Shown here: one piece after another, positions 3,120 through 31,713 of the stretch | Position numbering within the stretch: position 1 is the first letter of the stretch | Layout of the letters: the number at the start of each line of letters is the position of its first letter | Translations under genes and position numbers: made by a program | The notes under the pieces: generated by a model | What the model was told of the DNA's origin: nothing | The model's database searches: none | What the model saw: only the letters and a program-made list of their open reading frames with translations | Assembly: GCA_049299915.1 (NCBI GenBank) | Contig: JBAQYG010000018.1 | Location: forward strand, 1 to 36,578 | Source: Minisyncoccia bacterium | Lineage (GTDB): Bacteria; Patescibacteriota; Minisyncoccia; UBA6257; JAVHQB01 | Direction: 5' to 3' | Length of the DNA stretch: 36,578 bases

Positions 3120-3443
3120 TTAATTGAAAGTTTTAGCTAACAGATCAAAAAACATTTTAAATATTCCTACTATGAATTCCCACATCCCCTTAAGAAACTT
3201 TAAACAAATAGCTATGAAGTCACTTGTGAAGATTTGTCTGAATAACTCCCCTACCTGTTTAGCAAATGTCGTAAAAAATAGGGTAACCTTATCTACCCAA
3301 GGAGTAATTTTTTCCGCATTAAATTCTTCGTAATTAAACTTAGTTGTACTAGTAGCACTTAAAGATATCTTATAACCAACAACCAAAACGCCTAAGATAA
3401 CCAAAATTATTATAACCAATAAAATTTTTGATTTTCTGCTCAT
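3120..3443 (-). CDS. Small hypothetical membrane protein
   Basis: 107-aa ORF 6 nt downstream of gltX with an N-terminal TM segment ILLVIIILVILGVLVVGY. No recognisable family. Confidence 0.5.
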   Translation of the reverse strand: MSRKSKILLVIIILVILGVLVVGYKISLSATSTTKFNYEEFNAEKITPWVDKVTLFFTTFAKQVGELFRQIFTSDFIAICLKFLKGMWEFIVGIFKMFFDLLAKTFN

Positions 3444-9746: not shown

Positions 9747-9798
9747 ACTGCTAAATAACTTACGTAATAACTAAGATTAATTTATATAACTAGTATTT

Positions 9799-16828: not shown

Positions 16829-17338
16829 TTATGGTTGTGGCTTCCCGAATTCCTGGGCAACAAAAACAACAGTTTTTCCATTATAAATCCCTTCCATAGT
16901 AGCCATACCTATTTCCGTATAATGCGGATCCACTATATTCGCCCTATGGCTAGGAGATTTCATCCAAGAAGGGAGAATGTTCTGATAATTCTTGAAATTA
17001 ACTGCCAAATTTTCACCTGCATAACGATAATCATAGCCAGCTACCACAAACCAGTGCCATGGCGACACTCCTGTAGGGCTAACATGAGCAAAGTAACCAT
17101 TCTTAACCATATCTTGTACTTTGAGTTCTGCTACCCTATTTAAAGCTAAATTAACTTTAAGGGGTTTGAGTCCTAAAGCAATTCTTTCTGTATTGGTAGC
17201 TAAAACCATCTCTTCCACCATTCCGGAAGAATAATTGATAGCTCTAGCTGTCGAACTTAAAGAAAAACTACCTATAAGACTTAAAACCAAAACACCCAAA
17301 AACAATTTTTTTGTAGATAACATAAAAAAGAGAGGCAT
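16829..17338 (-). CDS. Secreted CAP/SCP (YkwD-like) domain protein
   Basis: Signal peptide ending STARA, then NTERIALGLKPLKVN...GYFAHVSP...YAGENLA...WMKSPSHRANIVDPHYTEIGMA, typical of CAP domains. Confidence 0.8.
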   Translation of the reverse strand: MPLFFMLSTKKLFLGVLVLSLIGSFSLSSTARAINYSSGMVEEMVLATNTERIALGLKPLKVNLALNRVAELKVQDMVKNGYFAHVSPTGVSPWHWFVVAGYDYRYAGENLAVNFKNYQNILPSWMKSPSHRANIVDPHYTEIGMATMEGIYNGKTVVFVAQEFGKPQP

Positions 17339-17405
17339 GTGTATTCGACTTATCTACCTAGTTGAATACGCTGCCCCTCCTTGCAGTTATCTCCTAAAGT
17401 AAATA

Positions 17406-17482
17406 AGCGACCGGTTACGCCACTGACTCCCCATAGCTTTTAGGCGTCCAATTTTACAAGCTATGGATCAACGTCTTCGCCT
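17406..17482 (-). promoter_or_regulatory. Structured RNA element, copy A (c-di-GMP-II riboswitch-like aptamer)
   Basis: RNA: AGGCGAAGACGUUGAUCCAUAGCUUGUAAAAUUGGACGCCUAAAAGCUAUGGGGAGUCAGUGGCGUAACCGGUCGCU. It has a 9-bp P2 and a loop/3'-tail pseudoknot ACGCC/GGCGU. It covaries with copies B and C. Confidence 0.6.
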
Positions 17483-17497
17483 ATTTAAAATTTTTAA

Positions 17498-17527
17498 CCA
17501 AACAAAAAAGACCTTTATGAAGGTCTT
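17498..17527 (-). terminator. Intrinsic terminator between aptamer copies B and A
   Basis: Minus-strand AAGACCUU-CAUA-AAGGUCUU followed by UUUUGUUUGG. Confidence 0.7.
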
Positions 17528-17550
17528 ACTCATTAGTCACTTAAAAACAT

Positions 17551-17626
17551 TAGTGGCCGGTTACACCATTGGCTCCCCGCAATTCAAGGTGTCCAATTAA
17601 GGATTGCGGATCAAAACCTTCACTAA
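17551..17626 (-). promoter_or_regulatory. Structured RNA element, copy B (c-di-GMP-II riboswitch-like aptamer)
   Basis: RNA: UUAGUGAAGGUUUUGAUCCGCAAUCCUUAAUUGGACACCUUGAAUUGCGGGGAGCCAAUGGUGUAACCGGCCACUA. Same architecture as A, with compensatory changes in P1, P2 and the pseudoknot. Confidence 0.6.
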
Positions 17627-17630
17627 CCCT

Positions 17631-17672: not shown

Positions 17673-17990
17673 CTATCTCTTTTCCCGTCTAGATAATAAA
17701 AGTGCCAATATGAGAACTACGATGCCTAATATAAATAACCACCAATAACTTAAACAGCCCCCAATCACAAAAAAGAGTAAATAAATAAGAATTAGCACAG
17801 TAATCAGGAAAGCAATCCAGATATTAAGGCGTTTGGCTGCAGTCAAAGAAATAACTACTAACATTAAGATTAGACTTAGTAATATAGCGATCCAATTATT
17901 TAAGCATATTCTCATTGAGAGATATGTAAGTATCGCTGTTAGAATCAATCCTATAATTAAAATTTTCTTAGAATTAGTCATATTTTTCAT
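17673..17990 (-). CDS. Small polytopic membrane protein (last gene of the TasA/SipW string)
   Basis: 105 aa that are almost entirely hydrophobic (3-4 predicted TM segments). It overlaps the upstream gene by 17 nt. Confidence 0.55.
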   Translation of the reverse strand: MKNMTNSKKILIIGLILTAILTYLSMRICLNNWIAILLSLILMLVVISLTAAKRLNIWIAFLITVLILIYLLFFVIGGCLSYWWLFILGIVVLILALLLSRREKR

Positions 17991-18864
17991 GACGTTTTTT
18001 AGCTAAAATGGCACAACCAAATGTTATTGCTAGTCCTAATAACAAAACCCACCAAGGTTTTAAACAAGTACTGCAAGTATTCCCCCCTAGACATAATAAA
18101 GAAGCTAAGAAAGAATTTATTCCTAATGATAATAATTTGGTTTTGCAGGAAGAAAGTTCTTGCTCTGTAGCTGCGCCTAAAATCAGCCCAGGAATAGTTG
18201 TAGTAGTAACATTATTAGTATTTTGAGTCCCTCCTAGTGTACCTCCTTCTTGTACTATTCCCTCTTCTAAGGGCTCACTTTCAGTAGTGATACCCTCTAC
18301 CCGACCGGGTTCAGTGGTAACAGTGGTTGTGCTTGAATAACCCCCACCGCCACCACCAGAAGTATAAGTTTGTTCATCAGAAGTGTTGTCATCATAACCA
18401 GTAATAGAAATATCAAAACCCAAGTGTTTCCCTTGATACTCATTTCCAGAGTTAGGATCAAAGTGAATAATATAATCATATTGAGTTGGAACTCCCCCTG
18501 TAGCCAAATTCGGAAGAGATAGATTACCTATATTAAAAAAATGGGAAAGAGTGCCGTTATAAAAAGAAGTGCTGCCATTTTTAATTTCCAAATTCAAAAT
18601 GCTACCCAAACCTTCATCATCAATTACATTTGTTGCTTTGGTTACTATCTTCAAAGGATTAGTGGTATTGTTTGTAATTTTTATCCAACGGGTAACATTG
18701 TCTCCGGGTAAAAAGTTGGCTTCATTAAACAAGGACAATGGTGGTTCATTTTCAAATTGAACCGCAAAATTAGCGATGTCGGCCTGGACAGGCTCAGCAA
18801 ATAAAAGACCAATGCTAAAAATGGCTGTTAAAGAAATTAAAATAGTTTTTAATGCTTTATTCAT
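17974..18864 (-). CDS. Secreted TasA-fold-like protein with Gly/Thr linker, Cys-rich segment and C-terminal TM anchor
   Basis: The likely start is MNKALKTILISL at 18864, 7 nt after the preceding stop; the tracked ORF extends to 18903. Signal peptide ...AEPVQA. The LFNEANFLPGDNVTRWIKITNNT and QGKHLGFDISI blocks resemble TasA/camelysin strands. The end reads CLGGNTCSTCLKPWWVLLLGLAITFGCAILAKKRHEKYD. Confidence 0.6.
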   Translation of the reverse strand: MNKALKTILISLTAIFSIGLLFAEPVQADIANFAVQFENEPPLSLFNEANFLPGDNVTRWIKITNNTTNPLKIVTKATNVIDDEGLGSILNLEIKNGSTSFYNGTLSHFFNIGNLSLPNLATGGVPTQYDYIIHFDPNSGNEYQGKHLGFDISITGYDDNTSDEQTYTSGGGGGGYSSTTTVTTEPGRVEGITTESEPLEEGIVQEGGTLGGTQNTNNVTTTTIPGLILGAATEQELSSCKTKLLSLGINSFLASLLCLGGNTCSTCLKPWWVLLLGLAITFGCAILAKKRHEKYD

Positions 18865-18871
18865 ATATCTT

Positions 18872-21136
18872 TTATTCGCTTGGAATAATTTCACTACCTT
18901 CAACGATATCGTTAACGCTTATTTCTGAAACTAATTTGGCTTCAATAATTGGTTGGCTCTCAATAATTGGGCTGATTTCATCAACAGGGGGCACATCAAG
19001 AACTGGGGCAACTGGTTCTTCTACAATGACCATCGTTTCCTCTGTAACGGGCTCCGTAGTCGTTGTCGTTGTAACCTCTACTGGAATTGTAGTGGTTGTA
19101 GTAGAATTTGTTTCTTCAATTAAAGATTCAATAGTAGTTGTAACGAGCTCCTCTAATGGTACATCTATTTCCGGAATTGTAGTTGTAGTTGTGGTTGTGG
19201 ATATGATTCCTTCAAGTAAGAGTGAACCAATAGTTATTGGCTCTTCTTCGGTTATTTTATTAAGTGTTCCTGGGGTAGGAATAGGATCTTGCCAAGCACC
19301 TATACCATCAGGAATTCTGGCATAAGATTTATTACCAGGAATTTCTGACGGGCAACTGCCTAAACCAGTTTCATTATTAGCAGTATCTGGGGTTGGCTCT
19401 AAAGTACAATAGGTTGATAAGTTATACGAATAAGAATCTATTAAATTATTTAGATTATCGTAGAGCGAAACGGTATCATTATTGTTATTTAATGTTTCCC
19501 CATTCATATATACTACTATCCAATCACCAGAATTAATAGTGGTAATCCCGGTATTAGTATTGGCAGGAGTTATATATTTAATATTTCCCTCTATGTCTTT
19601 AATGTACCAGCCAGCTAAATCCACTGTAGAACCACTCGCTTTATTGTAGATTTCTACCCATTCTCCTTTGGGCATTAAATCGTTATCTTCTCCGAAATCA
19701 AAACCGTATTCAAAGCCACTGGGATTAGGTAAAAATTCATTTAGAACAATATTCTCTGAAGCAGTACCTGCTAGATAGGTCACTACAACTTCTTGCAATA
19801 TTGGTGTCTGGGTTATATCTGTAGTAGTCAAAGTAGTTCTCCATTTAATATGGGTAGTCTCTGGTAAGCTAGTCAAATCAATAGACGAACTGCTCGATCC
19901 TAATATCCAATTAGACCAGGTAGTACCATCATTAGAGGTAGCCACTTCTAGAGTAATATCGGTACCAGTTGGTAATGTTTCTATCCAACTCAATTGTTGC
20001 CATCTCTTAATCGCTCCAGCATCAAATATTTGTGATTCAAATATACCAGGAGAATTGTTATAGGCTGGAGCAGAATAAACCATCATTTCCAAGACACCTG
20101 GCTGGCCATTATCGTCAGGAATATAAAGACGAACATATCTAGCATTCACTGTTGAGAAAGTATAGGTTAATGGCCCAGCATTATTATTGCCAGTTACGTT
20201 AGCCACAATGGATTGTTCTCCACCAAAAGCTCCTGTTTGACTTGTTTCCAGTGTGAAAGTATTTGCTATATGTGTGGGATTATCTTTGAAATACAAAACA
20301 ATTTTGTTGATATTATAAGAATTACCTAAATCTACTTTAAGCCAAGCATCCCCATTGCCAGTCCCCTTCCAATAACTATCATTGCTACTAATATCTCCGT
20401 CAAAAGCCTTGCCTGGAGTATGAGTGCTATCAGATGAATCGGCTGTAGCTGCAGCATTATAAGCTAGATTATTACCACCTCCACTACTTAATAGAACTAT
20501 ATTACCTGGATTAGAACTAGTATCAACATTAGTTCCAATACCAGCATTAAAGTCTTCTGGAGTGGTTTGAATCCAACTCCCCGATTCTATTACCCAACTA
20601 CCAGAGGTTACAGTATTAGAAATTTTTTCTTGGTCAGAAAAACCAATTCCACCCGTTTGTAATCCACTAAAGATAAAGTCAAAAGTACAAGTTTGATTTT
20701 GTAAAAGAGGGTCACTACTAGTTAGATTAGTAGTAAATATCCAATCTTCGGGAGCGGTCATTTCGTCTTTACTATAGGTGAAATCTTGGAGGGTGCCAGT
20801 ATAGCCAACATCTATCCCACCCAAACTAGCTTTTAGCTCTAAATAATTACAAAGGTCTCCTATTAAATTATCTACTTTTATTTTGTATTGAAAATTTAAA
20901 TTACCGTCGTTTACGACTCCAATCGTTTCGGTAGAAAGATTGGTCGGTATAATATTGGGTGAAAAATTAGCTTGTTGATTTAAAGAAAAATCTAAGGTTG
21001 CCGCAGTATAACTATTACTTAAAGAAGTTTCGGTATCATTAAAATAAGCGATAGTCTCTATCACTGCCGAAAGACCGGTCCAATTCAGACCGACTATCAG
21101 GGCTATTGCTATAATTTTAATAAAAGATTTTCTCAT
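18872..21136 (-). CDS. SipW-signal/TasA-like N-domain protein fused to F5/8 type C (discoidin) and lamin-tail (LTD) domains
   Basis: The signal ...IETIAYFNDTETSLSNSYTAATLDFSL is SipW-cognate type. Discoidin block: AFDGDISSNDSYWKGTGNGDAWLKVDLGNSYNINKIVLYF...ARYVRLYI. LTD block: IVLNEFLPNPSG...GEWVEIYNKASGSTVDLAGWYIKD...NDTVSLYD. The tail is Thr-rich and acidic. Confidence 0.7.
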   Translation of the reverse strand: MRKSFIKIIAIALIVGLNWTGLSAVIETIAYFNDTETSLSNSYTAATLDFSLNQQANFSPNIIPTNLSTETIGVVNDGNLNFQYKIKVDNLIGDLCNYLELKASLGGIDVGYTGTLQDFTYSKDEMTAPEDWIFTTNLTSSDPLLQNQTCTFDFIFSGLQTGGIGFSDQEKISNTVTSGSWVIESGSWIQTTPEDFNAGIGTNVDTSSNPGNIVLLSSGGGNNLAYNAAATADSSDSTHTPGKAFDGDISSNDSYWKGTGNGDAWLKVDLGNSYNINKIVLYFKDNPTHIANTFTLETSQTGAFGGEQSIVANVTGNNNAGPLTYTFSTVNARYVRLYIPDDNGQPGVLEMMVYSAPAYNNSPGIFESQIFDAGAIKRWQQLSWIETLPTGTDITLEVATSNDGTTWSNWILGSSSSSIDLTSLPETTHIKWRTTLTTTDITQTPILQEVVVTYLAGTASENIVLNEFLPNPSGFEYGFDFGEDNDLMPKGEWVEIYNKASGSTVDLAGWYIKDIEGNIKYITPANTNTGITTINSGDWIVVYMNGETLNNNNDTVSLYDNLNNLIDSYSYNLSTYCTLEPTPDTANNETGLGSCPSEIPGNKSYARIPDGIGAWQDPIPTPGTLNKITEEEPITIGSLLLEGIISTTTTTTTIPEIDVPLEELVTTTIESLIEETNSTTTTTIPVEVTTTTTTEPVTEETMVIVEEPVAPVLDVPPVDEISPIIESQPIIEAKLVSEISVNDIVEGSEIIPSE

Positions 21137-21146
21137 TCTATCTATA

Positions 21147-21731
21147 TTAATCCTTGTCTTCTTTTAATTTATTAATTTCGTCTTTTAATTTAATTATTTC
21201 TTTATCCTGTTCGCTGTCTTTTTTCTTGTTTTTTAACTTAGAAACTTCTTGCCAGATATTTTTAATCTCATCCCCCACTATAATAAGGGCTGGGATAGCA
21301 ATAACTAAGATAAATCCTAATGGCTGTTTGGCAAATTCAACTGCATATCCTAAGTAAGGAACGAAAAATAAAACTTTTCCCAATATATCCCTCTTAGAAA
21401 TCTCTCTTAAATCTTGAGCGTTATTAGCATCTCCCTTAGTAATGTAAACTGATTGACCATCTAGGGTTTTAATCTCAAAAATTCTATGAGTTGTTGGCGC
21501 TTTTGTTTTGCTGTATGGTCCAAAAGTTATTATGTCCCCAACTTTATAATCTTTGATTGGTTTTATCATTACTACGCTGCCCGTTTTAATGGTTGGCTCC
21601 ATTGAGCCTGACTGCACTACCATAAGCTTTATATTCCCAGGTACAGGAATGGCAGAAACAACCAATAGAATAGTAACGAAGCCAATAAATCCAAGTCCGA
21701 TGTAATAAATTATTTTCAGTGTTTTTTTCAT
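21147..21731 (-). CDS. sipW: Signal peptidase I, SipW/archaeal-ER type (S26B)
   Basis: N-terminal TM, VVQSGSMEPTIKTGSVVMIKP (catalytic Ser), APTTHRIFEI (His), KGDANNAQD, a second TM, and a charged Lys/Glu tail. TasA-like genes flank it on both sides. Confidence 0.8.
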   Translation of the reverse strand: MKKTLKIIYYIGLGFIGFVTILLVVSAIPVPGNIKLMVVQSGSMEPTIKTGSVVMIKPIKDYKVGDIITFGPYSKTKAPTTHRIFEIKTLDGQSVYITKGDANNAQDLREISKRDILGKVLFFVPYLGYAVEFAKQPLGFILVIAIPALIIVGDEIKNIWQEVSKLKNKKKDSEQDKEIIKLKDEINKLKEDKD

Positions 21732-21867
21732 CAGTTAATTTTTAAGATTTCATCCCCCATCCCCCTCACGCCAAAGAAGTTTAATTTCATCTCTAAACCT
21801 ATTTGGTGTAAGGGGGAATCCCTCACACTTTTATTTACTTATCTAAAACAAATGAACTAATCACTAA

Positions 21868-23142
21868 CTACTTGGGATTAGTAGCGGTGATGCAAGAGAA
21901 ATCTGGTTGATTTCTGAATTGTTCTGCTCTTAGGAGTAGGTCAGCTGTGACCTTATCACTTTGAGAAGAATTATCCATAGAAGAACCATCGCAAGTAATA
22001 GTGTTTCCATTAATTGTTTGTGTTCCTGCGCACCAAGCCAAACCAATATAAACCTTAGTATTGCCTGGTAATTTAGCACCCGCCAGTGTTAGAGAATCAT
22101 ACAAAGGAATCATTGAACCATTGGTTAGGGTATAAGAACCGAGCGAACCTTCACCCGAATCATACACTCCATCACCATTGGTATCTCTCCACATAAAAAT
22201 GTGAAGGTTTTGGCCTAATTCGCCAGCTGGCGAAGTATCCGGAATAAGCATTTCTAATTCTGGCTCAGTTAATGATATTTCCTCATTAACTACATTTTCA
22301 GTAGATAGACATACCCAAGAATCATTATTATCAACTGTTAGGCTTATAACATTGGTTCCACTATCCCCTGGCTTCACATCATTCAAATTAAAGAATTTCT
22401 CATTTGTAAGATCTTTGGAATCCCAAAGTTGGCAATTCTCTTTGAAATAATCATCTTCGCAATTACCATCAATTACTAGCTTATAAATAAGTCCACCCGG
22501 GTTATCCCATGTTTGACCTACTGGCCTTAACCAATTTTTAACTACAAAACGTAGGGTATTATTCCCCTGGTGAATGGCGCTTGAGATAGTAGTTCCAGAA
22601 TACGTATCTTGTCCTCCGGCATTATAATTCTGTTCTGTATTATCTCCGACAATATAGACATCATTTAGATAGATTTCATAACTATTATCCGTGCCAATAC
22701 TAAGTTGCAATGTTGCATCTGTAATCGGACCATACCAGATAAAAGTTTTTTCAAAAGTATAAATTGTATCTATACCGTATTCATCTACTGGAGTAGGATC
22801 TGTCCACCAGATCCAATTAGCACCAGGAATACTGGCTGTCCAGGCGGGATTCGGATTAGTTACTGTAACAGCTGGGTGTGGAAATGGTCCTGTGTCTAGT
22901 CCATTATCACTTTTTGCCGTTACTTGATTAGATGTATCACTTACGACTGTTACATCGCAAGTCTTACAATCCGCACCATTATAGGTTTGTTTTGTATGGT
23001 CAACTTTCAAATCCAAGGAACCAGCAACTAAGATATTGTCAGCAGAAGTCTCTGTATCGCTGAAGTAAGCGACGGTTCCACCAATGGCAAAAGCTGCCAC
23101 TATTCCGATTACGCTCAAACTGATTAATATTTTTTTATTCAT
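21868..23142 (-). CDS. TasA/camelysin-like protein 1 with inserted beta-sandwich domain
   Basis: The likely start is MNKKILISLSVIGIVAAFAIGGTVAYFSDTETS at 23142; the tracked ORF starts at 23178. It carries AGSLDLKVD, FFNLNDVKPGDSGTNVISLTVDNNDSW and a C-terminal ...DLLLRAEQFRN. A ~170-aa insertion (ANWIWW...TFEKTF...ATLQLSIGTDNSYEIYLND) looks like a galactose-binding-like jelly roll. Confidence 0.7.
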   Translation of the reverse strand: MNKKILISLSVIGIVAAFAIGGTVAYFSDTETSADNILVAGSLDLKVDHTKQTYNGADCKTCDVTVVSDTSNQVTAKSDNGLDTGPFPHPAVTVTNPNPAWTASIPGANWIWWTDPTPVDEYGIDTIYTFEKTFIWYGPITDATLQLSIGTDNSYEIYLNDVYIVGDNTEQNYNAGGQDTYSGTTISSAIHQGNNTLRFVVKNWLRPVGQTWDNPGGLIYKLVIDGNCEDDYFKENCQLWDSKDLTNEKFFNLNDVKPGDSGTNVISLTVDNNDSWVCLSTENVVNEEISLTEPELEMLIPDTSPAGELGQNLHIFMWRDTNGDGVYDSGEGSLGSYTLTNGSMIPLYDSLTLAGAKLPGNTKVYIGLAWCAGTQTINGNTITCDGSSMDNSSQSDKVTADLLLRAEQFRNQPDFSCITATNPK

Positions 23143-23279
23143 ATAATTTAGCAAAATCATGCTAGACATAACATTCACATCATGCTAAGCATGGTCTAGT
23201 AGGACCATGCTTGGGCATAATTGTGGTGTTTTTGTCGTTATTATTAACGACCTTTGATTACTTTTTAAGCTTTATATTT

Positions 23280-24386
23280 TTAAACCTCTTTAGCTGTAAA
23301 TGTTGCCCAATCTAAGTACCAAAGTTGTTCGGCTCCAAAGTGAATAGCCATCTTTATTTCATTTGTTCCGCATTTGGTAACAGTTGTTGTTTGATATTTG
23401 GGAACATTAATATTGGAGTATAGATTTCCAACCAATTGACCATTAAGTGGCCCCTCTGAGATCATGATGTTTGACAATCCTGGTACATCACTACCAGAAG
23501 CTCCGTCTATAGCAAAGTCAAAATAGGCGGGAGAGTACGTAGGATTATGTAACGTGAAATCTATACATAATCCTTTTATTTCTTGTGTATACCAAGGTTT
23601 ATCAAGAGAAACTGTATTGAGCACATTTTGTTCAGATGGATCCGTTAATACAAATGCATATTCTTTAATACATTTAAAACTATCATTATTTCTCGCCTGA
23701 ACAACATTGAAACTAATATCGCCAGTCATACTATCTGTCTGTACAGCATTACCCGTCTCAGCTGGAAGAGTCCAGCCAACACCTAGACAAGTGGTAGTAC
23801 CACCTAGTAACGCACTGCCAGTAGTTGAATCATAAAGTGGTAAGACACCATTTACTGGATGGCCAGATAGCAAAATTGTTTCATCATCTTGATGGATATT
23901 ATCACATTTACCAGTTGGCTCTCCTCCATTAGGGTTTGCTACTCCATCATCTTTCCAGATAGTGAATACGAGATTATCCTGTAATTCACCAACGCTGTCT
24001 ACTGCACACTGGGGTTCTGCCTCTAATTCTGGGTCATTGCAGCTATTCTCTGCACTCGTCAAATTCTTAACTTCGGCACAAACCCAAGCATCATTGTTAA
24101 TAACATGTAAGCTTATAGTATCTTCTCCAATATCACCTGGTTTAACATCGGCAAAATTGAAGAATTTATCAGCTGTGGGAATTAAGTCTTTCTCTTGCCA
24201 TGTTGCACTATCAACTATTACACCATTATAAGTGGCTTTACTATCAATTTTCAAATCAATAGCCCCAGCAGTAAAAGTATTGCCGGTGGAAGTTTCCGTA
24301 TCGCTGAAGTAAGCGACGGTTCCACCAATGGCAAAAGCTGCCACGATTCCTATTACGCCCAAACTAAGAATAATTTTTTTGTTCAT
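23280..24386 (-). CDS. TasA/camelysin-like protein 2
   Basis: MNKKIILSLGVIGIVAAFAIGGTVAYFSDTETSTGNTFTAGAIDLKID (compare B. subtilis TasA ...GGGTWAAFND...GTLDL), FFNFADVKPGDIGEDTISLHVINNDAW, and GDISFNVVQARNN. Confidence 0.75.
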   Translation of the reverse strand: MNKKIILSLGVIGIVAAFAIGGTVAYFSDTETSTGNTFTAGAIDLKIDSKATYNGVIVDSATWQEKDLIPTADKFFNFADVKPGDIGEDTISLHVINNDAWVCAEVKNLTSAENSCNDPELEAEPQCAVDSVGELQDNLVFTIWKDDGVANPNGGEPTGKCDNIHQDDETILLSGHPVNGVLPLYDSTTGSALLGGTTTCLGVGWTLPAETGNAVQTDSMTGDISFNVVQARNNDSFKCIKEYAFVLTDPSEQNVLNTVSLDKPWYTQEIKGLCIDFTLHNPTYSPAYFDFAIDGASGSDVPGLSNIMISEGPLNGQLVGNLYSNINVPKYQTTTVTKCGTNEIKMAIHFGAEQLWYLDWATFTAKEV

Positions 24387-24496
24387 ATTCTTATATTAAA
24401 TTATTAATATTTTAATTTTTGAAATTTATATTTTTGAAATCTTAATTACTAGATCGACCAAACCTCATAATTAAAATTCCAAACAAACAACTAACT

Positions 24497-24560
24497 AAGG
24501 TCTTAAGACCTTAGTGGTTACCCCTACAACTGGAGGGTAATAAGGATAACCACTAAAGCC
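24497..24560 (-). repeat. Hairpin repeat, copy 1 (between the adhesin stop and TasA-like 2)
   Basis: The 51-nt core at 24509-24559 is identical to 27950-28000 except for 1 nt. The RNA GCUUUAGUGG-UUAUCCUUA-UUACCC-UCCAGUUGUAG-GGGUAA-CCACUAAGG folds into a long hairpin with an asymmetric bulge. A second small hairpin, AAGGUC-UUAA-GACCUU, follows. Confidence 0.8.
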
Positions 24561-24607
24561 TTAAGGAGGATAGGGGTCAGAATGGACCTCTATCCCCTTT
24601 AAAGATT

Positions 24608-27600
24608 TTATTTCTTTTTTCTTAGAACCAAGGCATATAAGCCGCCTCCAATTACTATGAGTCCAAGGAATATTAAGAACCAATTGATATTCTTTTTGCC
24701 AGTTTCATCTAGGGTGCCCAAAACAATTTCTTCTTCTGGTTTAGTAGTAGCTGTTGTTACAGTGGTAGTCGTAGTAGCTTCTGTGGAAGCCCCTAATACA
24801 GACCCCTCTTCACCATAATTTCCAAACCCGCCTCTTTCATTAGTGAGATCTGGCATAGCTAAACCTAATTCGGGGCAAACTATAAGATTAATCTTCCTTT
24901 GGGTAGTTCTGTAAACATATCCCGTAGAATCGTTTGAACTAATAAGAAGTCCTGCATCTACCCATGGTTGCAAAACTTCATCTTTATAAGCTAATTGGAA
25001 AGTAGAAACAGCATTAAAATCATCTTGGCTGTAAATACCATCAACGGGTAAATTAAGACCAAGGTATTCATTAAGGAACTGTTGTAATTTTATAACTTCT
25101 ACTGGGTCATTGTTGCTTCCTAATTTTATATATTTATAAAGATATAAATCACAATTTCCTATAGAAGCACCTAAAACTTCACCTTGGGGTTCAGTGCTCT
25201 CGGTGCTAGCTCCAGCTACTGCAGCAGGAGTAGTTGTAGTGGTAGTAGTACCATCATTACCAGTATATGTAGGAGATGAACCGCCACCACATGATTGAGT
25301 ATTGCAAGATCGGCTTGTGGGTCCTTCACATTGTGCGCCGTCGGCACAAGTTCTTGTTTGAGTTCCGCCACCACAAGTTACCGAACAAGTACCCCATTCT
25401 GACCAACCAACAATATAATTAAAGAAATCTGCTCGGGCTTCGTGGTCAAATTGAGTCTGCACATCTGATTCAACGGTAACCGTTTGGCATAAAGGGTCAC
25501 CACTACCCCAACCAAGTTGCATGACTTCACAGATTTGATAATCTCCATTATTAATATTTTCAAATCGATAGAAACCACCGCCATCTGTAGTTTGATAGGG
25601 TTCTTGCTGGTCAAATTCTTCGTCATGGTCTAAATCAAGATAAATAGTCCAACCATTCATTCCAGCGGCTTCATCGGGATCAGAAGAATCGTACAGACCA
25701 TCACGATCTAAATCATTTATTTTATAACCAGCAATGCTGCCAGTTGGATTGTTATTATAATTCAAGAAAGTAACTTGAGGATGACTATTGGTTTCACTAA
25801 TTACAACTTGGGGGCTACCATCGGGGGTAGGTGCAGTTTGAGTCCAACCAGTTGTTTGGTTTTCGTGTACGGTATAAGTTCCGTATGATAAATTATCGAA
25901 TTCGAAACAGCCAGAAGTTTGATTAGTTGTTTCATTGGCAACTTCATGACCCGCTGGTTCACCCTCGGGATAATACCATAATCTTATACTCCAAGATAAA
26001 GGAGTATCTGTCCCAACATCATATATTCCATCTTGATTAGCATCGTTGTATTTGCAAGCGGTAATAGAACCAGTTGGTATCTCATAATTAAAGAAATTTG
26101 CTTGAGTTTCTACTCCACTAGTAACCACCACCTCTTGGCAAAGAGAATTGCTTGTCCATCCTCCTTTCATCACTTCACATATCTGATAAGTACCAACAGA
26201 AAGAGTTCTAAAACTATAGAAACCTTCTTGATTAGTTGTTGTCTGGAGATTATCTCCATCGTCATTACAGTCCCCGTCTTTATTTCCATCTATACAAATA
26301 TTCCAACCCTCTAAACCCGGTTCTTGTTCGTCCCAATTACCGTCTTTATTTAAGTCATTGTATTTGTATCCAGCAATATCACCTGTCGGAGTCGGATTTT
26401 CTGATATACACTCATAAACTTTCAAATCCAAAGAGTCACTATTATCACTCATTCCCGTCTGATTCTGCCATTCAGTATCAAACCAATCACTATATCTATC
26501 TCCTATAACAAACTGTGTTGAAGGTGAACCGCTTGGAATGGAATAATAGAAATCATAAAAATGATCGGAATTATAAACACCCCAATCAATAACTCCAACT
26601 GTATTAGTACCTAAATTACCTAAAAGAGCATGGGCTGCATAATCATTGCCAGTTCCCAGTATTCCGTATTGAGACTGACCAAGCGTATAGCCAGCATCTG
26701 CCTGTAGAGTACTATTGGGTTTAAATAAGCCCGAAACTCTGAATAGGTAACTTTTCCCACCCGTTAAATTGAATGTTTCTCCGTCGACATCATTACCATT
26801 GATGGACAACTGTTGAATTGGCTGGGAACCTTCAACTGTTCCATTTGGACAACCTTGGTCAGAATGATAAATAGGTATTAAGTGGCAAGTAGTAGAACAG
26901 AAATTGTGGTCGGGAGTTATACCTTCTGTGCCTTCGCATTCTTCAGTGCTATCTTTTACGCCATTGCCACAAGATGGGGCATTAAAACCAACACAATAAT
27001 AAGTATTTTGATACTGAGGATTATTTATGTAGTCATAGTTATCATAATTTAAGATATCATCATGACAATAAAATTCAGCACTAGAGGTTTGGCTAGTGTC
27101 TGTTCCCGTAAAAGGAATAAAATTATTTTGTAAAACTTCTCTTACCCAAATCTTGCTACTTCCATTCAGGTCACTAATGGAGGCAGGCGAAGCAATACTA
27201 AAAGTATTCCAATCACTACCACCAGGACCAACTAAAGCATCGCCAGGATTGCTTACATTTTCATAAGCCCATTCAAAATTCCAATCTTGAGTAAAACGAC
27301 ATTTTCCTTGGCTTTGATCAACCCAATTTTGAGCAGTACCTGAGCCAATTACAGTGTCGGGATAAGTTGAACCACTACCAGCTCCCCAATTTGGAAGGTC
27401 TGATTCGTTATCACAAATTACCTTTGAAGCAACTATTGTTACTGGAGAATTGGCACAATCAGAATCAGCACTATCCTTATATCCGTCACAATCATTATCT
27501 AATTGGTCATTACAAATTTCAGCACCCGTGGAAATACAATTATAATTATCACAAGAATTTCCAATTCCATCATGATCATCATCAACTTGATTAGTATCAT

Positions 27601-27901
27601 CTGAATATGAAGGGCATAAATCGCAAGCATCGCCTATTCCATCTCCGTCGGCATCAGCTTGATCGTCATTAATAGTATTAGGACAATTATCGCAGGCATT
27701 ACCCTTACTATCCTCATCTGTGTTTGCTTGATCTGTATTAGGAGTAGTTGGACAATTGTCTGAAAAATCTGGAAAAGTATCTGTATCGGTATCGGTAATA
27801 GGGTCTCCTGCTAATGCCAATCTGATAAATCCTCCGCTTGACGAAACCATGGAAAAAACCATAGTTACAATCAAAACTTTGGACCAAAATAATTTATTCA
27901 T
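24608..27901 (-). CDS. 1097-aa mosaic surface adhesin (TSP type 3 repeats, Cys-rich repeats, 3 SdrD-B/Cna-B-like repeats, TSP type 1 repeat, PG-binding domain, C-terminal sorting-signal-like tail)
   Basis: Signal peptide, then DNCPTTPNTDQANTDEDSKGNACDNCPNTINDDQADADGDGIGDACDLCP (TSP3) and CGNGVKDSTEECEG. SdrD-B-like repeats: GYKYNDLNKDGNWDEQEPGLEGW...GFYSFRTLSVGTYQICEV, plus two more. TSP1: WSEWGTCSVTCGGGTQTRTC. PG_binding_1-like: VIKLQQFLNEYLGLNLPVDGIYSQDDFNAVSTFQ. The end reads LDETGKKNINWFLIFLGLIVIGGGLYALVLRKKK. Confidence 0.75.
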   Translation of the reverse strand: MNKLFWSKVLIVTMVFSMVSSSGGFIRLALAGDPITDTDTDTFPDFSDNCPTTPNTDQANTDEDSKGNACDNCPNTINDDQADADGDGIGDACDLCPSYSDDTNQVDDDHDGIGNSCDNYNCISTGAEICNDQLDNDCDGYKDSADSDCANSPVTIVASKVICDNESDLPNWGAGSGSTYPDTVIGSGTAQNWVDQSQGKCRFTQDWNFEWAYENVSNPGDALVGPGGSDWNTFSIASPASISDLNGSSKIWVREVLQNNFIPFTGTDTSQTSSAEFYCHDDILNYDNYDYINNPQYQNTYYCVGFNAPSCGNGVKDSTEECEGTEGITPDHNFCSTTCHLIPIYHSDQGCPNGTVEGSQPIQQLSINGNDVDGETFNLTGGKSYLFRVSGLFKPNSTLQADAGYTLGQSQYGILGTGNDYAAHALLGNLGTNTVGVIDWGVYNSDHFYDFYYSIPSGSPSTQFVIGDRYSDWFDTEWQNQTGMSDNSDSLDLKVYECISENPTPTGDIAGYKYNDLNKDGNWDEQEPGLEGWNICIDGNKDGDCNDDGDNLQTTTNQEGFYSFRTLSVGTYQICEVMKGGWTSNSLCQEVVVTSGVETQANFFNYEIPTGSITACKYNDANQDGIYDVGTDTPLSWSIRLWYYPEGEPAGHEVANETTNQTSGCFEFDNLSYGTYTVHENQTTGWTQTAPTPDGSPQVVISETNSHPQVTFLNYNNNPTGSIAGYKINDLDRDGLYDSSDPDEAAGMNGWTIYLDLDHDEEFDQQEPYQTTDGGGFYRFENINNGDYQICEVMQLGWGSGDPLCQTVTVESDVQTQFDHEARADFFNYIVGWSEWGTCSVTCGGGTQTRTCADGAQCEGPTSRSCNTQSCGGGSSPTYTGNDGTTTTTTTPAAVAGASTESTEPQGEVLGASIGNCDLYLYKYIKLGSNNDPVEVIKLQQFLNEYLGLNLPVDGIYSQDDFNAVSTFQLAYKDEVLQPWVDAGLLISSNDSTGYVYRTTQRKINLIVCPELGLAMPDLTNERGGFGNYGEEGSVLGASTEATTTTTVTTATTKPEEEIVLGTLDETGKKNINWFLIFLGLIVIGGGLYALVLRKKK

Positions 27902-27938: not shown

Positions 27939-28000
27939 AAGGCTTAAGGCCTTAGTGGTTACCCATACAACTGGAGGGTAATAAGGATAACCACTAAAGC
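27939..28000 (-). repeat. Hairpin repeat, copy 2 (38 nt upstream of the adhesin ATG)
   Basis: See copy 1. The core is CCTTAGTGGTTACCCATACAACTGGAGGGTAATAAGGATAACCACTAAAGC on the plus strand. Confidence 0.8.
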
Positions 28001-28016
28001 TTTAATTTTAGATACT

Positions 28017-28232: not shown

Positions 28233-28260
28233 AAAAAACCAGCTCATAAAATAAAGCCGG
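28233..28260 (-). terminator. Terminator hairpin overlapping the 3' end of aptamer copy C (candidate expression platform)
   Basis: Minus-strand CCGGCU-UUAUUUUAUG-AGCUGG followed by UUUUUU. The 5' arm CCGGCU is part of the conserved AACCGG/P1 3' segment of the aptamer. Confidence 0.55.
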
Positions 28261-28324
28261 TTTTGCCATTGACTCGCCATAGTCTTAAGGCAACCAATTT
28301 GTAGACTATAGGTCTTCGTCTCTT
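28253..28324 (-). promoter_or_regulatory. Structured RNA element, copy C (divergent c-di-GMP-II riboswitch-like aptamer)
   Basis: RNA: AAGAGACGAAGACCUAUAGUCUACAAAUUGGUUGCCUUAAGACUAUGGCGAGUCAAUGGCAAAACCGGCUUU. P2 is CUAUAGUCU/AGACUAUGG and the pseudoknot is UUGCC/GGCAA. It lacks the GUUGAU block seen in A and B. Confidence 0.5.
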
Positions 28325-28367
28325 AGGACTAGTTAGTTGTCAAAAAACACTTATCTAAATTATTTTC

Positions 28368-28528: not shown

Positions 28529-29890
28529 TTAGAGAGTCACTAGGACTGCACGAGTAAGTGACCCCACATAACCCAAAGTAGGAAATATATTATGGGCTAT
28601 TTGAAATTTAATCACGGCTGCTTCTGTAGCCGAACCAAAATAAATTGTTTCATTACCAATAGAACCAAAACCACTTGAAGCAACTATGTATCCATTGGCA
28701 TTTAATAATTTTTGCAGAGCGCGAACATCCTCCCCACTAATACCTCTATATAAATTACGAGTAAAGGTCACCTCAGTACTATTTGTGGGAATAGTCGTCG
28801 AAACTGAAGGGGGTAAGTCCCCTGATGGATGAGCAGCGATAAACGCTCGTGTTATAGCCCCATAATACCCAATTGAAGGAGAAATACCCATAGCTATTTG
28901 GTATTCTATAAGAGCTGTTTGGGTAATTTCTCCAAAATATCCAGTGGCCCCAGCACTAGCAAGACGTGTCGCAGCAGCTCCTGTAGCTGCTTTGATTAAA
29001 TAATTCTGAAGCTCAATAACCTTAGTTCCCGATGAACCAAGCGCAAGATCGTCACTAAGAACAGGGGTATAGACATTTATGGGCAGTGTAGTAGGAGTTG
29101 TTGGAATAGATGTAATGGCGTTGATTATGGGTTGAGGCAAGGAAATACCGGCGTCTAACGCTTTAATAAATGTAGAGGGAAAATTAGTTACTAAAAGTTG
29201 CGAAAGAGTAGTACTATCGGAAGTTTGGGTAAGAATTGTGGAAAGAAAGGATATTTTTTCTTGAAGAGAAAATTCTCCTGTTAAACGTGGAAATGGGTCC
29301 ATTGGAGTATCGGAACTATTGTGTATTTCAAAATGAAGATGGGCTGCTCCCCCAGAAGCATTACCAGTATTACCAACATAACCAATAAGTGAGCCTTGTC
29401 CGAGAACTAATCCAGAAACAACTCCCTCTCCGATACTTGTAAGATGCATATATACAAATGTTTCGCACCCAGGATTAGCAGTATAAACATAATTCCCTGA
29501 GCTTGTACCAGTACCGGTACGCAAAACAACTGCAGGGGTTGGAGAAACAATTGGCGTTCCTTTAACTGCCATAATATCTTCACCTAAGTGTAGACGATTA
29601 ACATCACGTGGGTCACCAAAATTGGGTGAAATATCTTTGACTTCAATACCAAAAAGAACGGGCATCATCACCGAAGCATTGGCCGTAGTTCCTAAGGCAT
29701 TAATTTTTTGTTGTAAATCATTTGATTGATGTGAGTAGTCTCGTGTCCATGGCTGGTCAACACTTGGTGTATAGGCTGCTAGAACACTTAATACGGGAGA
29801 TATGGCAAGGATAAACAATACAATCATTGCTATATAATGCACCAAACGTTTCATTCCCCATTCGTTTAAAAGTACTTTCATATAGCCCAT
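28529..29890 (-). CDS. M23 family metallopeptidase with two C-terminal peptidoglycan-binding (PG_binding_1-like) repeats
   Basis: HLGEDIMAVKGTPIVSP (HxxxD), GYVGNTGNASGGAAHLHFEIH (HxH). The two repeats are GTKVIELQNYL...GYFGEITQTALIEYQ and GEDVRALQKLLNANGY...YFGSATEAAVIKFQ. It has an N-terminal TM/signal. Confidence 0.85.
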   Translation of the reverse strand: MGYMKVLLNEWGMKRLVHYIAMIVLFILAISPVLSVLAAYTPSVDQPWTRDYSHQSNDLQQKINALGTTANASVMMPVLFGIEVKDISPNFGDPRDVNRLHLGEDIMAVKGTPIVSPTPAVVLRTGTGTSSGNYVYTANPGCETFVYMHLTSIGEGVVSGLVLGQGSLIGYVGNTGNASGGAAHLHFEIHNSSDTPMDPFPRLTGEFSLQEKISFLSTILTQTSDSTTLSQLLVTNFPSTFIKALDAGISLPQPIINAITSIPTTPTTLPINVYTPVLSDDLALGSSGTKVIELQNYLIKAATGAAATRLASAGATGYFGEITQTALIEYQIAMGISPSIGYYGAITRAFIAAHPSGDLPPSVSTTIPTNSTEVTFTRNLYRGISGEDVRALQKLLNANGYIVASSGFGSIGNETIYFGSATEAAVIKFQIAHNIFPTLGYVGSLTRAVLVTL

Positions 29891-29963
29891 GGTAGCGCAT
29901 ACTAAAAGGAAAACCTATTATTTTATAAACCGATAGTTGCTTTTTGGCAAGTCGATAAAACTA

Positions 29964-29992
29964 CCAAAAACCACCCTAGCTAGAAAGAGTGG
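29964..29992 (-). terminator. Intrinsic terminator after the ATPase gene
   Basis: Minus-strand CCACUC-UUUCUAGCUA-GGGUGG followed by UUUUUGG. Confidence 0.5.
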
Positions 29993-30036
29993 CTTTGAAA
30001 TAAAATATTTGAAATTCCTCAACTATATCTACTCTA

Positions 30037-31713
30037 TTATTTCCCCAATATCGTATCCAAGATATTTTTTAATTTTTTAGTGTCCACATTCTGTTTGTTA
30101 GGACGACTGCTAGTCGTAGCCCTTATCGCATCAGTATGTTTATCTGGTTTGGCTGTAAAAGAAGCCGGTACAACGTTTTTGGTAACGCTATCCAAAGCTT
30201 CTATCTTTCCTGTTTTTATATTCTCTAAACAATCTGAACAGTATACTGGTCTATTGGCATCTGGCTCAAAGGGTACACTAATAGGTCGGGCGCATAGTGA
30301 ACATTTGGTCACCCAACGAGTCTTTTCTTTTGTTGATTCTTTATTACCATTATTTCCCCTATCTACTTCTGCGGGAGGATTTCCTGTGTCCAATCCATAA
30401 TTATAAACACTCCAATCACTAATTGTTTTTTCTACTTCATTTTTATGACCGCTATAAAGACTACGAGAGTATTCTTTTATTTTTTCCCGGTTGGTAAACT
30501 TAATCCTATCAAAGGGTGGAATGTTTAAAGCAGAAAATGGTTCAGATACATAACCGTCAACCATTAAGCGCATATAGAAATTAAAGTTGGGCAAGTTGGA
30601 GATATCTATAGCACTGAATTGGCGTTTACATTCATTTTCAAAATACATGGCATCCTCTATACCTAAACGATATAGAACCATTGTGCCGACGTTACCAATA
30701 ATAGCGTCTCTCACCGTATCGTTAAGCTGAGCCACATACTGATGGGCCATTATGAGATTCAAATGGTACTTACGGGCTTCAGATAAGATATTGGCGAAAG
30801 AATCAGTAGAGAAATTCTGAAACTCATCTACATATAAATAAAAGTCAGGGCGCTCTTCCTCGGGTACATTAACTCGAGACATAGCCGCCAATTGCAGCTC
30901 AGTAATAAGAATGGCACCTAAAAGAGCAGAATTGTCCTCCCCTATTAGCCCCTTAGAAAGATTCACTATCAATATCTTGCCATTGTCTATAATCTCTCTT
31001 AAATTTATTTTGCTGTGTGTTTGGCCAATGATATTTCTAATTAAAGGATTAGAAATAAACTGACCAATCTTATTCTGAATGGCAGCTACGGCTTCCTGAG
31101 CATATTTTTCGTTATAGTTTGCGAATTCGTTTACCCAGAAAGATTTAACCATTGGGTCTTTGACGTAATCTACTACTACCTGGCGATAATTCTTATCGCT
31201 CAGCATTCTGTTAATACTTAAAAGAGTTGTATCTGGATATTCTAGAAGAGCTAATAAAGTATTATTTAAAATGTATTCCATTCTGGCAGACCAAACATCT
31301 GGCCAGATCTTTTTAAATACTGCCATGAGTCCCGAACTAATTAAATGACGAGACTCTGGAGTAACGTCTTCCATTACGTTGAAAGAGATTGGCCAATCTA
31401 AATCACTTGGATTGAAATACACCACGTCTTTAATTCGTTCTTCAGGAACATAGTCCAACATCAAATCAGCAAATTCTCCGTGAGGATCCACAATACCAAT
31501 ACCTGAGCCATTTTTAATATCAGCTATAGCCATGTTCTCCATAATAGTAGTTTTACCGGTACCAGTTTGCCCGATAATATACATATGGCGACGCCTATCT
31601 TTGGCCTTAATCCCAAATTTGGTAAGATCCCCTCTAAAATTAGTTAAACCTAGTGGGATTAATTGATCGTCTTCGACTATATATGATTTTTTTATTGGGA
31701 TATCTTCAGTCAT
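30037..31713 (-). CDS. VirD4/TraG/TrwB-like (type IV coupling protein-like) P-loop ATPase lacking TM segments, with C-terminal CxxC-x17-CxxC zinc ribbon
   Basis: Walker A IIGQTGTGKTT, Walker B FYLYVDEFQNF, and ARKYHLNLIMAHQYVAQL typical of the TraG/VirD4 C-terminal half. The C-terminus CSLCARPISVPFEPDANRPVYCSDC has exactly 17 residues between the Cys pairs (nt 30229-30303). Confidence 0.7.
   Translation of the reverse strand: MTEDIPIKKSYIVEDDQLIPLGLTNFRGDLTKFGIKAKDRRRHMYIIGQTGTGKTTIMENMAIADIKNGSGIGIVDPHGEFADLMLDYVPEERIKDVVYFNPSDLDWPISFNVMEDVTPESRHLISSGLMAVFKKIWPDVWSARMEYILNNTLLALLEYPDTTLLSINRMLSDKNYRQVVVDYVKDPMVKSFWVNEFANYNEKYAQEAVAAIQNKIGQFISNPLIRNIIGQTHSKINLREIIDNGKILIVNLSKGLIGEDNSALLGAILITELQLAAMSRVNVPEEERPDFYLYVDEFQNFSTDSFANILSEARKYHLNLIMAHQYVAQLNDTVRDAIIGNVGTMVLYRLGIEDAMYFENECKRQFSAIDISNLPNFNFYMRLMVDGYVSEPFSALNIPPFDRIKFTNREKIKEYSRSLYSGHKNEVEKTISDWSVYNYGLDTGNPPAEVDRGNNGNKESTKEKTRWVTKCSLCARPISVPFEPDANRPVYCSDCLENIKTGKIEALDSVTKNVVPASFTAKPDKHTDAIRATTSSRPNKQNVDTKKLKNILDTILGK

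Follow-up and report, generated by a model that had tools for sequence, protein, structure and literature searches.

We describe a cassette of six genes that encodes a SipW-type signal peptidase together with proteins related to TasA of Bacillus subtilis, located in a Minisyncoccia bacterium (assembly GCA_049299915.1, contig JBAQYG010000018.1; 36,578 nt, referred to below in its full length as the window). The cassette occupies positions 17,673-24,386, and the organism is a tiny, probably host-attached bacterium of the Candidate Phyla Radiation (CPR)/Parcubacteria. An earlier, sequence-only reading of the same DNA had proposed a TasA-like fibre or attachment apparatus at this position; the present analysis follows it up with profile searches, structure prediction and comparison of related loci.

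The cassette and its proteins

Six open reading frames (ORFs) follow one another on the minus strand: T2, a TasA-like subunit (24386..23280, 368 amino acids); its TasA-like paralogue T1 (23142..21868, 424 amino acids); the SipW-type signal peptidase (21731..21147, 194 amino acids); B (21136..18872, 754 amino acids); C (18864..17974, 296 amino acids); and the membrane protein D (17990..17673, 105 amino acids). All of them had been called in the sequence-only reading, and their coordinates and strand were confirmed. The description of the spacers as tiny applies to the peptidase-B spacer (10 nt), the B-C spacer (7 nt) and the C/D overlap (17 nt), but not to the intervals T2-T1 (137 nt), T1-peptidase (136 nt) and adhesin-T2 (221 nt), the adhesin gene being the next one upstream. 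Compared with shuffled sequences, the T2-T1 spacer has a folding z-score of -6.0 and the hairpin in the adhesin-T2 interval one of -6.9; that of the T1-peptidase spacer is modest (-2.7).

The peptidase is a signal peptidase I of the archaeal/endoplasmic reticulum type, with membrane helices at its N- and C-terminus. It scored 121.7 bits with TIGR02228 (sigpep_I_arch; cut-off 51.85; residues 3-158 covered, model of 158 positions) and 119.1 bits with the Bacillus SipW equivalog NF046067, which is below the cut-off of 190; it is SipW-like and, by the NCBI criterion, no SipW orthologue. Its translation contains the catalytic motifs SGS43MEPT, TH82RI and GD101AN (Ser43, His82, Asp101, direct count), that is, Ser-His(-Asp) motifs in place of the Ser-Lys dyad typical of bacterial P-type peptidases, at a spacing that we take to resemble S47/H87/D106 of B. 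subtilis SipW. The matching substrate signal was recognized in three of the proteins: TIGR04088 ("SipW-dependent-type signal", cut-off 19) gave 35.4 bits for T2, 27.6 for T1 and 25.0 for B. The cognate signal sequence GGTVAYFSDTETS occurs twice in the window, and IETIAYFNDTETS is also present.

T2 consists of a SipW-type signal, a donor-strand-like N-terminus, a jelly-roll core (residues ~45-240) and a C-terminal beta-sandwich (241-368) with weak similarity to CBM6. Its homologues (3222 at E<=1e-3) come nearly all from CPR/Patescibacteria metagenome bins, and some are named "TasA family", "CalY family" or "SipW-dependent-type signal peptide-containing protein" at NCBI; conservation extends over residues 1-240, and the C-terminal parts are variable. 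Cleavage is predicted at A25|Y26, and the conserved sequence that follows aligns with residues 28-47 of TasA, F27, D29, E31, S33, N36, G41 and D44 being invariant in 76 T2-family sequences. The segment equivalent to TasA 28-38 is disordered in monomer models, as expected for a strand that has no partner in its own chain. C103 and C239 are nearly invariant or invariant in the cores of these 76 family members, a pattern suggestive of a disulfide kept in what would be an extracellular jelly-roll.

PF12389 (gathering score 22.5) matched T2 with 26.6 bits and T1 with 25.7 bits, in both cases over the N-terminal ~45 residues; the N-terminal domain of B remained below the cut-off (20.5 bits), and no match was obtained for C. 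The AlphaFold model of full-length T2 (predicted local distance difference test, pLDDT, 83) comprises two beta domains, with low confidence over residues 21-40, and Foldseek searches with this two-domain model returned generic multi-domain beta-sandwich matches only. For the T2 core alone (residues 28-240; AF2, pLDDT 89.6, predicted TM-score 0.85) the TasA fibre 8AUR_A was the top PDB match and the sole one at E<=1e-3 (probability 0.99); the Sulfolobus thread filament 7PNB ranked fourth.

The relationship of the proteins to TasA was further examined by profile-profile comparison with hhalign, using a TasA profile of 117 Bacillales TasA/CalY sequences (query identical to 8AUR and 5OF1) and family profiles built from related loci. 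The TasA profile matched the T2 core with a probability of 97.1% (E 7e-11, extending to T2 residue 113), the N-terminal domain of B with 97.2% and the C family with 94.5% (E 8e-8; TasA 53-228, NLSNLKPGD to NKYQGNSIKLQFSF); C still reached 91% with a TasA profile from which signal and donor strand had been removed. Within the cassette, C matched B with 98.3% and the T2 body with 88.9%, and T1 matched the T2 core with 100%, with an insertion. Not significant were the comparisons of the T2 body alone and the B body alone with the TasA profile, of a body-only profile with a single TasA sequence, and of the T2 profile with the single C sequence; the link of C to T2 emerged only with family profiles. 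The score with the B. subtilis TasA equivalog NF046066 was 12.6 bits, far below its cut-off of 450. From the matches among T2, B, C and TasA, together with the paralogy of T1 and T2, profile comparison therefore indicates that all four proteins share a TasA-related domain.

In T1, a paralogue of the T2 core, ~175 residues are inserted at positions ~61-237. A Pfam scan of this insert as a single sequence gave nothing. A 13-member profile of it matched the PDB lectins 6T0Q, 6T1D and 6KBJ (E~9e-8) and the N-terminal sugar-binding domain of the rhamnosidase 3W5M (E 1e-7), and members of the insert family match Glyco_hydro_2_N (GH2_N), PA14 and Bac_rhamnosid_N; by these profile matches the insert is assigned to a lectin-like jelly-roll of the galactose-binding-domain type. 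The 5' ends of T1 and T2 (23000-23144 and 24244-24388) form a 145-nt direct repeat with 82% identity, far above that of the remainder of the two genes; it covers the signal peptide and the donor-strand region and suggests gene conversion of, or strong constraint on, this segment.

B begins with a SipW-type signal and TasA-like N-domain (residues 1-~200), behind which lie an F5/8 type C domain (230-345), one more domain, a lamin-tail domain at 458-572 and a tail rich in Thr, Glu and Pro; it is a candidate adhesin-bearing subunit. When B is compared with its counterpart in the close relative L089 (Candidatus Parcubacteria bin GCA_026395635.1), nucleotide identity is 95% through the peptidase gene and the TasA-like N-domain, after which the sequences are unrelated (18872-20668 vs 6643-7620 of L089; 754 vs 481 amino acids). 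The adhesin part is thus subject to module swapping between very close relatives.

C has an ordinary signal peptide, a TasA-like body (~30-175), a Gly/Thr linker, a C-terminal membrane helix and a basic tail. The body lacks the donor-strand segment and retains the strand that follows it. The SipW motif is absent from all 41 members of the C family; in at least 24 the C-terminal tail is hydrophobic, and three carry LPXTG-type signals. Homologues are annotated only as "hypothetical", "FN3 domain-containing" or "LPXTG protein"; the TasA relationship of this family is missed by current annotation. We regard C as a candidate cell-anchored acceptor or base subunit. D, a multi-pass membrane protein, matched no known family and has no homologue in 88 more distant loci. 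The lack of homologues had made it seem possibly spurious as an ORF, a view that was rejected when it was found to be kept in the close relatives L089, L090, L091 and L092 (E 2e-47 and 9e-26), with an overlap with C of equal size in L090 and L091/L092.

Most of what the sequence-only reading had claimed for the individual proteins is borne out by these data. The peptidase motifs are present in the translation; the SipW-type or archaeal identity of the enzyme and the cognate signal in three proteins both agree with family models above their cut-offs. Four TasA-like proteins had been proposed, of which T2, B and C are now linked to Bacillales TasA/CalY by hhalign and T1 through T2; the checks that it had suggested, by PF12389 and by structure prediction of a TasA jelly-roll, gave the T2 and T1 matches and the top Foldseek match described above. 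The jelly-roll insert in one shaft subunit corresponds to that of T1, the fusion to adhesion domains to B with its Pfam-recognized F5/8 type C and lamin-tail domains, and the membrane anchor to the C-terminal helix of C, which is conserved across the C family. The notion of two shaft subunits, one of them with an insert, needs revision: neither is plain, as T1 has its lectin-like insert and T2 an extra C-terminal beta-sandwich.

Conservation across CPR genomes

One genome per GTDB species was scanned, and at least 546 loci or species genomes with T2 relatives were found; among the best 80 of these, practically all are CPR bins. For 83 non-redundant loci, ORFs in all six frames were then searched with the domains of the window. 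In most of them the same order recurs, with one to four T2-like genes, in 21 loci a T1-like gene, then SipW, a B-like and a C-like gene; T, SipW, B and C occur together in 36. A SipW-type gene stands beside TasA-like genes in ~73 of the 83. By regular expression the SipW-type motif was found in 149/174 T2-like, 18/21 T1-like, 26/43 B-like and 0/41 C-like ORFs. The N-terminal domain is conserved in the 43 B-like ORFs, their C-terminal modules being variable. Since the gene set recurs in ~70 independent loci, the association is far beyond chance, and the synteny that the sequence-only reading had proposed to look for exists in dozens of CPR genomes.

In 19 loci the peptidase is fused to a substrate in one ORF of 340-560 amino acids (L038, L048, L055, L056, L057, L058, L064, L071, L072, L073, L079, L080 and L088 among them). 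The order within these fusions is peptidase, basic linker, new membrane helix and cognate motif (e.g., GGTLSYFNDSETS..N); the resulting membrane topology is self-consistent, and most of the 19 also contain a recognizable TasA-like domain of the B type. Separate B and C genes are missing from most of these loci. The fusions are natural joins of enzyme and substrate and offer the best available comparative evidence that the peptidase would process these proteins.

The riboswitch leader and the adhesin gene

The leader of the operon is headed by a variant aptamer of the cyclic di-GMP class II (c-di-GMP-II; 28332..28246, minus strand), one of three clan CL00127 aptamers in the window according to an Rfam scan. 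It scored 41.7 bits with RF03169 (gathering score 40) and 43.6 bits with RF01786 (gathering score 53.5). An intrinsic terminator follows on the same strand (28233..28263), which in the minimum-free-energy fold consists of AAACCGGCUUU, a loop and AGCUGGUUU, then a U run. The 3' end of the aptamer (AAACCGGCUUU) is also the 5' half of the terminator stem; from this overlap the element would be an ON switch, in which the ligand prevents termination. Among nine aptamers from close-relative loci, 19 of 22 pairs show compensatory changes, in support of the fold, and 88.6% of the cells in their alignment are paired, vs 33-39% in slid controls, the alignment having been fitted to the model and so favouring structure.

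The close relatives L089-L092 were reached through homologues of the C protein. L089 is 93-95% identical to the window at the nucleotide level in T1, SipW and the N-domain of B, and it shares the flanks, a coupling protein of a type IV secretion system (T4SS) on one side and QueH, MnmA and AlaRS on the other. Its leader has a near-identical aptamer and terminator, then a 63-nt hairpin, and then directly the T2-like gene, without an adhesin gene. L091/L092, whose C protein is 46% identical, have a canonical RF01786 aptamer at the head of the operon (63.9 bits, above the gathering score), followed by a 345-amino-acid gene, T2, T1, SipW, B, C and D.

In the window the leader also holds the adhesin gene (24608..27901, minus strand), which encodes 1097 amino acids with TSP3 repeats, SdrD-B/SpaA-type domains, TSP1, a peptidoglycan-binding domain and an LPXTG-like tail (Pfam, NCBIfam) and is missing from the otherwise collinear L089. 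It is bracketed by two copies of the 63-nt hairpin, both on the minus strand and 95% identical: copy 1 (27943..28005) lies ~40 nt ahead of the adhesin start (minimum free energy, dG, -28.6 kcal/mol, z -5.2), and copy 2 (24502..24564) ~115 nt ahead of the T2 start (26-bp stem, dG -39.3 kcal/mol, z -6.9). L089 has a single copy (1260-1326, 91% identical), and none was found in 88 distant loci. From copy 2 up to the T2 start the window hardly differs from the 3' part of the leader of L089; the adhesin gene therefore lies within the riboswitch leader. It looks like an insertion into the operon leader, or else L089 may have lost the gene through recombination between the hairpin copies. Candidate functions of the hairpin are those of an attenuator, an RNase site, a stabilizer or a recombination site.

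The arrangement raises the alternative that the riboswitch governs the adhesin gene only, that the hairpin terminates transcription and that the TasA-like cassette is transcribed from a promoter of its own. A terminator-like call at 24515..24494, the dG of -39 kcal/mol of the hairpin and promoter-like hexamers at 24438..24409 would fit, although such hexamers are no commoner than in shuffled sequence (46 vs 44 expected). In L089, however, the same hairpin lies between the aptamer and the first gene, and in the window a copy precedes the adhesin start, so that it is no unconditional terminator in these positions; the stretch from the hairpin to T2 is the conserved 3' part of the L089 riboswitch leader, and in L091 a canonical aptamer heads the operon. 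We consider separate control of the adhesin gene unlikely.

The connection between riboswitch and cassette had at first seemed doubtful, given the intervening adhesin gene and hairpin and the lack of an aptamer in distant loci; relatives of the L089 type reversed this for their clade. Rfam found no aptamer in nine related loci, and our own covariance model, run over 84 sources, returned nothing but two sub-threshold matches, both in L075. In this distant Parcubacteria bin c-di-GMP-II-GAG-like elements are located at 9688-9796 and 3174-3284 (34.9 and 31.6 bits; gathering score 40), one of them immediately upstream of the first TasA-like gene, and L075 may be an independent case of the aptamer-TasA link. 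By the comparison of leaders, the link between riboswitch and cassette is real but clade-specific, and absent from most CPR cassettes. Of the regulatory part of the sequence-only reading, the riboswitch-linked locus therefore stands for the clade in which an aptamer heads the TasA-like genes (L089, L091), not as a general feature; the linked giant adhesin is, with 1097 amino acids, large rather than giant, and its gene is probably a lineage-specific insertion into the operon leader.

Downstream, between D and a gene for a secreted protein of the CAP/YkwD family (16829..17338, minus strand; PF00188, 63.7 bits), two canonical c-di-GMP-II aptamers stand in tandem on the minus strand (17630..17546 and 17487..17400; RF01786, 63.9 and 71.2 bits, gathering score 53.5), with an intrinsic terminator between them (17527..17508, minus strand). 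A like unit is present in L091 (2075-3104). CAP genes are recurrent neighbours of the cassette, adjoining it in ~12 of the 83 loci and in L091.

On the other side of the leader, positions 28529-31713 (minus strand) encode an M23 peptidase with peptidoglycan-binding domains and a T4SS coupling protein of the VirD4/TrwB type, which has a treble-clef zinc finger and is found beside the cassette in L089 as well. A PD-(D/E)XK nuclease with a Mu Gam/Gp157-like domain of TOTE conflict systems is encoded at 1734-2852 (minus strand), amid housekeeping genes. No sortase gene is present in the window.

Proposed assembly and comparison with known systems

We propose that the genes of this region form a single operon for a surface structure in a Parcubacteria-type CPR bacterium and that its product would be a c-di-GMP-switched, cell-anchored, lectin-studded fibre built by donor-strand exchange, a reading to which we give a probability of roughly 0.55. 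Ligand on the leading aptamer would prevent termination, and transcription would run on into the adhesin gene and the TasA-like cassette. T2, T1 and B would be exported by the Sec pathway and then cut by the adjacent SipW-type peptidase after ..GGTVA / ..IETIA, which would free the N-terminal segment (YF[SN]DTETS..N) that corresponds to the TasA donor strand. A heteropolymeric fibre would form as the freed strand of each subunit enters the jelly-roll of its neighbour. C has a body and an anchor but no donor strand and should therefore only be able to accept one; it would take the last free strand and tie the fibre to the cell, as base or terminator. B would be the adhesin-rich subunit, with the largest and fastest-exchanged binding modules. 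Putative glycan or ligand modules are the C-terminal beta-sandwich of T2, the lectin-like insert of T1 and the F5/8-C and lamin-tail domains of B; as every strand-donating subunit has such a module, the fibre would be a multivalent attachment organelle. The analysis establishes which genes are present, their family and fold relations, the conservation of the cassette, the joining of enzyme and substrate in fusions and the place of the riboswitch; cleavage, polymerization, polarity, anchoring, ligand and the role in attachment are steps that we infer from the genes and their relatives.

Several observations weigh against this proposal. The PF12389 matches of T2 and T1 span only residues ~8-51 (model positions ~7-51 of 196), for which reason the TasA fold of the mature parts needed the separate test given above; likeness to TasA peaks in the signal and first strands, PDB sequence searches with T2 and T1 and a search with the T2-family profile returned nothing relevant, and the Foldseek TM-score of the T2 core with 8AUR_A is just 0.38. 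On the regulatory side, the leading aptamer is below the RF01786 gathering score and fits the variant family, for which the ligand is putative; 80 more distant CPR cassettes have no such aptamer; the adhesin-T2 hairpin is very stable, has a T-rich tail and could terminate transcription; and no gene for a c-di-GMP synthase or phosphodiesterase is found in the window.

The proteins might instead form a shed biofilm-matrix scaffold that glues cells and matrix together and is not a cell-anchored attachment organelle. The nearest characterized systems, TasA, CalY and BsaA, are matrix proteins (PMC9674648, PMC13082335, PMC11580942), and the fold and profile links point to TasA and CalY. Yet the cassette conserves a membrane- or LPXTG-anchored TasA-like protein, C, the membrane peptidase and the B-type subunit form one protein in some lineages, and lectin- or adhesin-type modules are found on all strand-donating subunits, all of which makes a shed matrix improbable. 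We judge it just as improbable that no polymer is formed and that the cassette is an export and processing unit for independent lectin-like surface proteins with a common SipW-type signal and beta-sandwich. Each protein has its own binding module and the monomer models are confident alone, as such a unit would have it, but the segment after the cleavage site matches the TasA donor strand, with several positions invariant in the 76 sequences, and is disordered in the monomer models; a donor-less, anchored paralogue such as C is hard to explain in the absence of strand acceptance; and heteropolymeric fibres typically have several paralogues in one operon (PMC11580942, PMC13082335).

That intermolecular isopeptide bonds lock the subunits after strand exchange, in the manner of C. 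perfringens BsaA and the archaeal thread, a variant of the fibre model, is the least probable of these alternatives: Asn36 in the donor segment is invariant, Lys82 (KPGD) nearly so, E88, E120 and D44 are conserved in the T2 family, there are weak matches to the BsaA family TIGR04090 and the thread 7PNB is among the top fold matches, but TasA too has the KPGD lysine, aligned with that of T2, and B and C are without it. CalY has the KPGD lysine and an Asn at the equivalent strand position, and we know of no isopeptide bond reported for TasA or CalY.

More tentatively, and with more doubt than confidence on our part, type IV pili may not be the only class of surface filament that is widespread in CPR bacteria; the second would be a pilus built by donor-strand exchange, independent of sortase and of chaperones, with polymerization coupled to SipW cleavage at the membrane, a donor-less TasA-fold anchor and swappable lectin or adhesin modules for host recognition, and in at least one Parcubacteria clade it would form a c-di-GMP riboswitch regulon together with the inserted adhesin and a CAP-domain protein. 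Under such a scheme the fusion of SipW to its substrate in some lineages would follow from the coupling of cleavage to polymerization. If true, an attachment programme under second-messenger control would for the first time have been described for such an ultrasmall episymbiont. Attachment structures of CPR bacteria studied so far are type IV pili and a few adhesins only (PMC11665869). Host attachment and recognition in this group are largely obscure, and the cassette, present in at least 546 GTDB species genomes, provides a concrete candidate, an attachment fibre whose sugar-binding modules would be exchangeable. It would extend the TasA/SipW paradigm by an unannotated TasA-fold anchor, by fusions that argue for cleavage-coupled assembly and by a riboswitch instead of protein regulators. 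Loci of this clade have three to four c-di-GMP-II-class aptamers each, which suggests that c-di-GMP signalling governs surface remodelling in a reduced genome.

The closest point of reference is the B. subtilis tapA-sipW-tasA operon (8AUR, 5OF1), in which a SipW-type peptidase is likewise encoded beside its substrates. The two systems have in common the cleavage context (GGGTWA|AFND in Bacillus, GGTVA|YFSD here), the jelly-roll fold (predicted here), a conserved N-terminal donor segment and an accessory protein for anchoring or nucleation. TasA subunits are joined by residues 28-38 of their mature N-terminus, which enter the following subunit; the first strand has been proposed to come from TapA (PMC9674648, PMC10151520). 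The present cassette differs in that it has four TasA-like paralogues instead of one and no TapA; its accessory protein C is donor-less and membrane-anchored, whereas TapA is a proposed strand donor; its subunits bear lectin or adhesin modules; a riboswitch stands in the place of SinR; and the NCBI equivalog cut-offs for TasA and SipW are missed.

Combinations of several TasA/BsaA paralogues with LPXTG proteins and peptidases in one operon have been reported chiefly from Firmicutes, together with the idea of a heteropolymer, and for BsaA membrane assembly coupled to SipW cleavage has been proposed (PMC11580942). The sipW-bsaA-bsaB-bsaC operon of Clostridium perfringens resembles our cassette in the combination of sipW with several TasA-like paralogues and in a subunit with adhesion domains, VWA there and F5/8-C plus lamin-tail here; in some strains bsa operons include LPXTG-bearing paralogues (PMC11580942). 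Gene order is different, the N-E-K isopeptide triad and the dependence on type IV pili are features of the bsa side, and the CPR cassette has its own C family and SipW-substrate fusions; CPR lie outside the taxa discussed (PMC11580942). In B. cereus, sipW-tasA-calY with CapP also comprises paralogous TasA-like subunits, two in number, which form established TasA-CalY heterofilaments and co-assemble with an accessory cell-wall-associated factor (PMC13082335). In the CPR cassette no homologue of CapP was noted, binding modules are part of the subunits, and it is the anchor itself that has a TasA fold.

Among archaea, the bundling pili AbpA/AbpB (PMC9245690) and the Sulfolobus thread (7PNB) are TasA-related or TasA-like donor-strand filaments. 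A second, larger subunit with extra beta-domains is proposed there as initiator or adhesin (PMC9245690). The archaeal operon has neither a dedicated peptidase nor a riboswitch, and the sequence relation is remoter. Homologues of PF12389 in Patescibacteria were noted there in one sentence (Wang et al. 2022, PMC9245690).

In architecture, with an adhesin subunit, repeating subunits and a cell-anchored terminal subunit, the proposed fibre is similar to sortase-assembled Gram-positive pili; its subunits would be joined by strand exchange after signal-peptidase cleavage, in contrast to sortase transpeptidation. As to regulation, C. difficile has c-di-GMP-II riboswitches ahead of pilA1 and of adhesin genes, with an aptamer that overlaps a terminator and works as an ON switch. 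The targets there are a type IV pilus and sortase substrates, here a TasA/SipW cassette with an RF03169-like variant aptamer. Our literature search turned up no publication that deals with the CPR cassette, with SipW in CPR or with TasA/SipW genes under a c-di-GMP riboswitch. What would set the cassette apart from the systems compared, as judged from its genes, is the donor-less TasA-fold anchor, the lectin modules on all candidate polymerizing subunits, the peptidase-substrate fusions and the control by a riboswitch.

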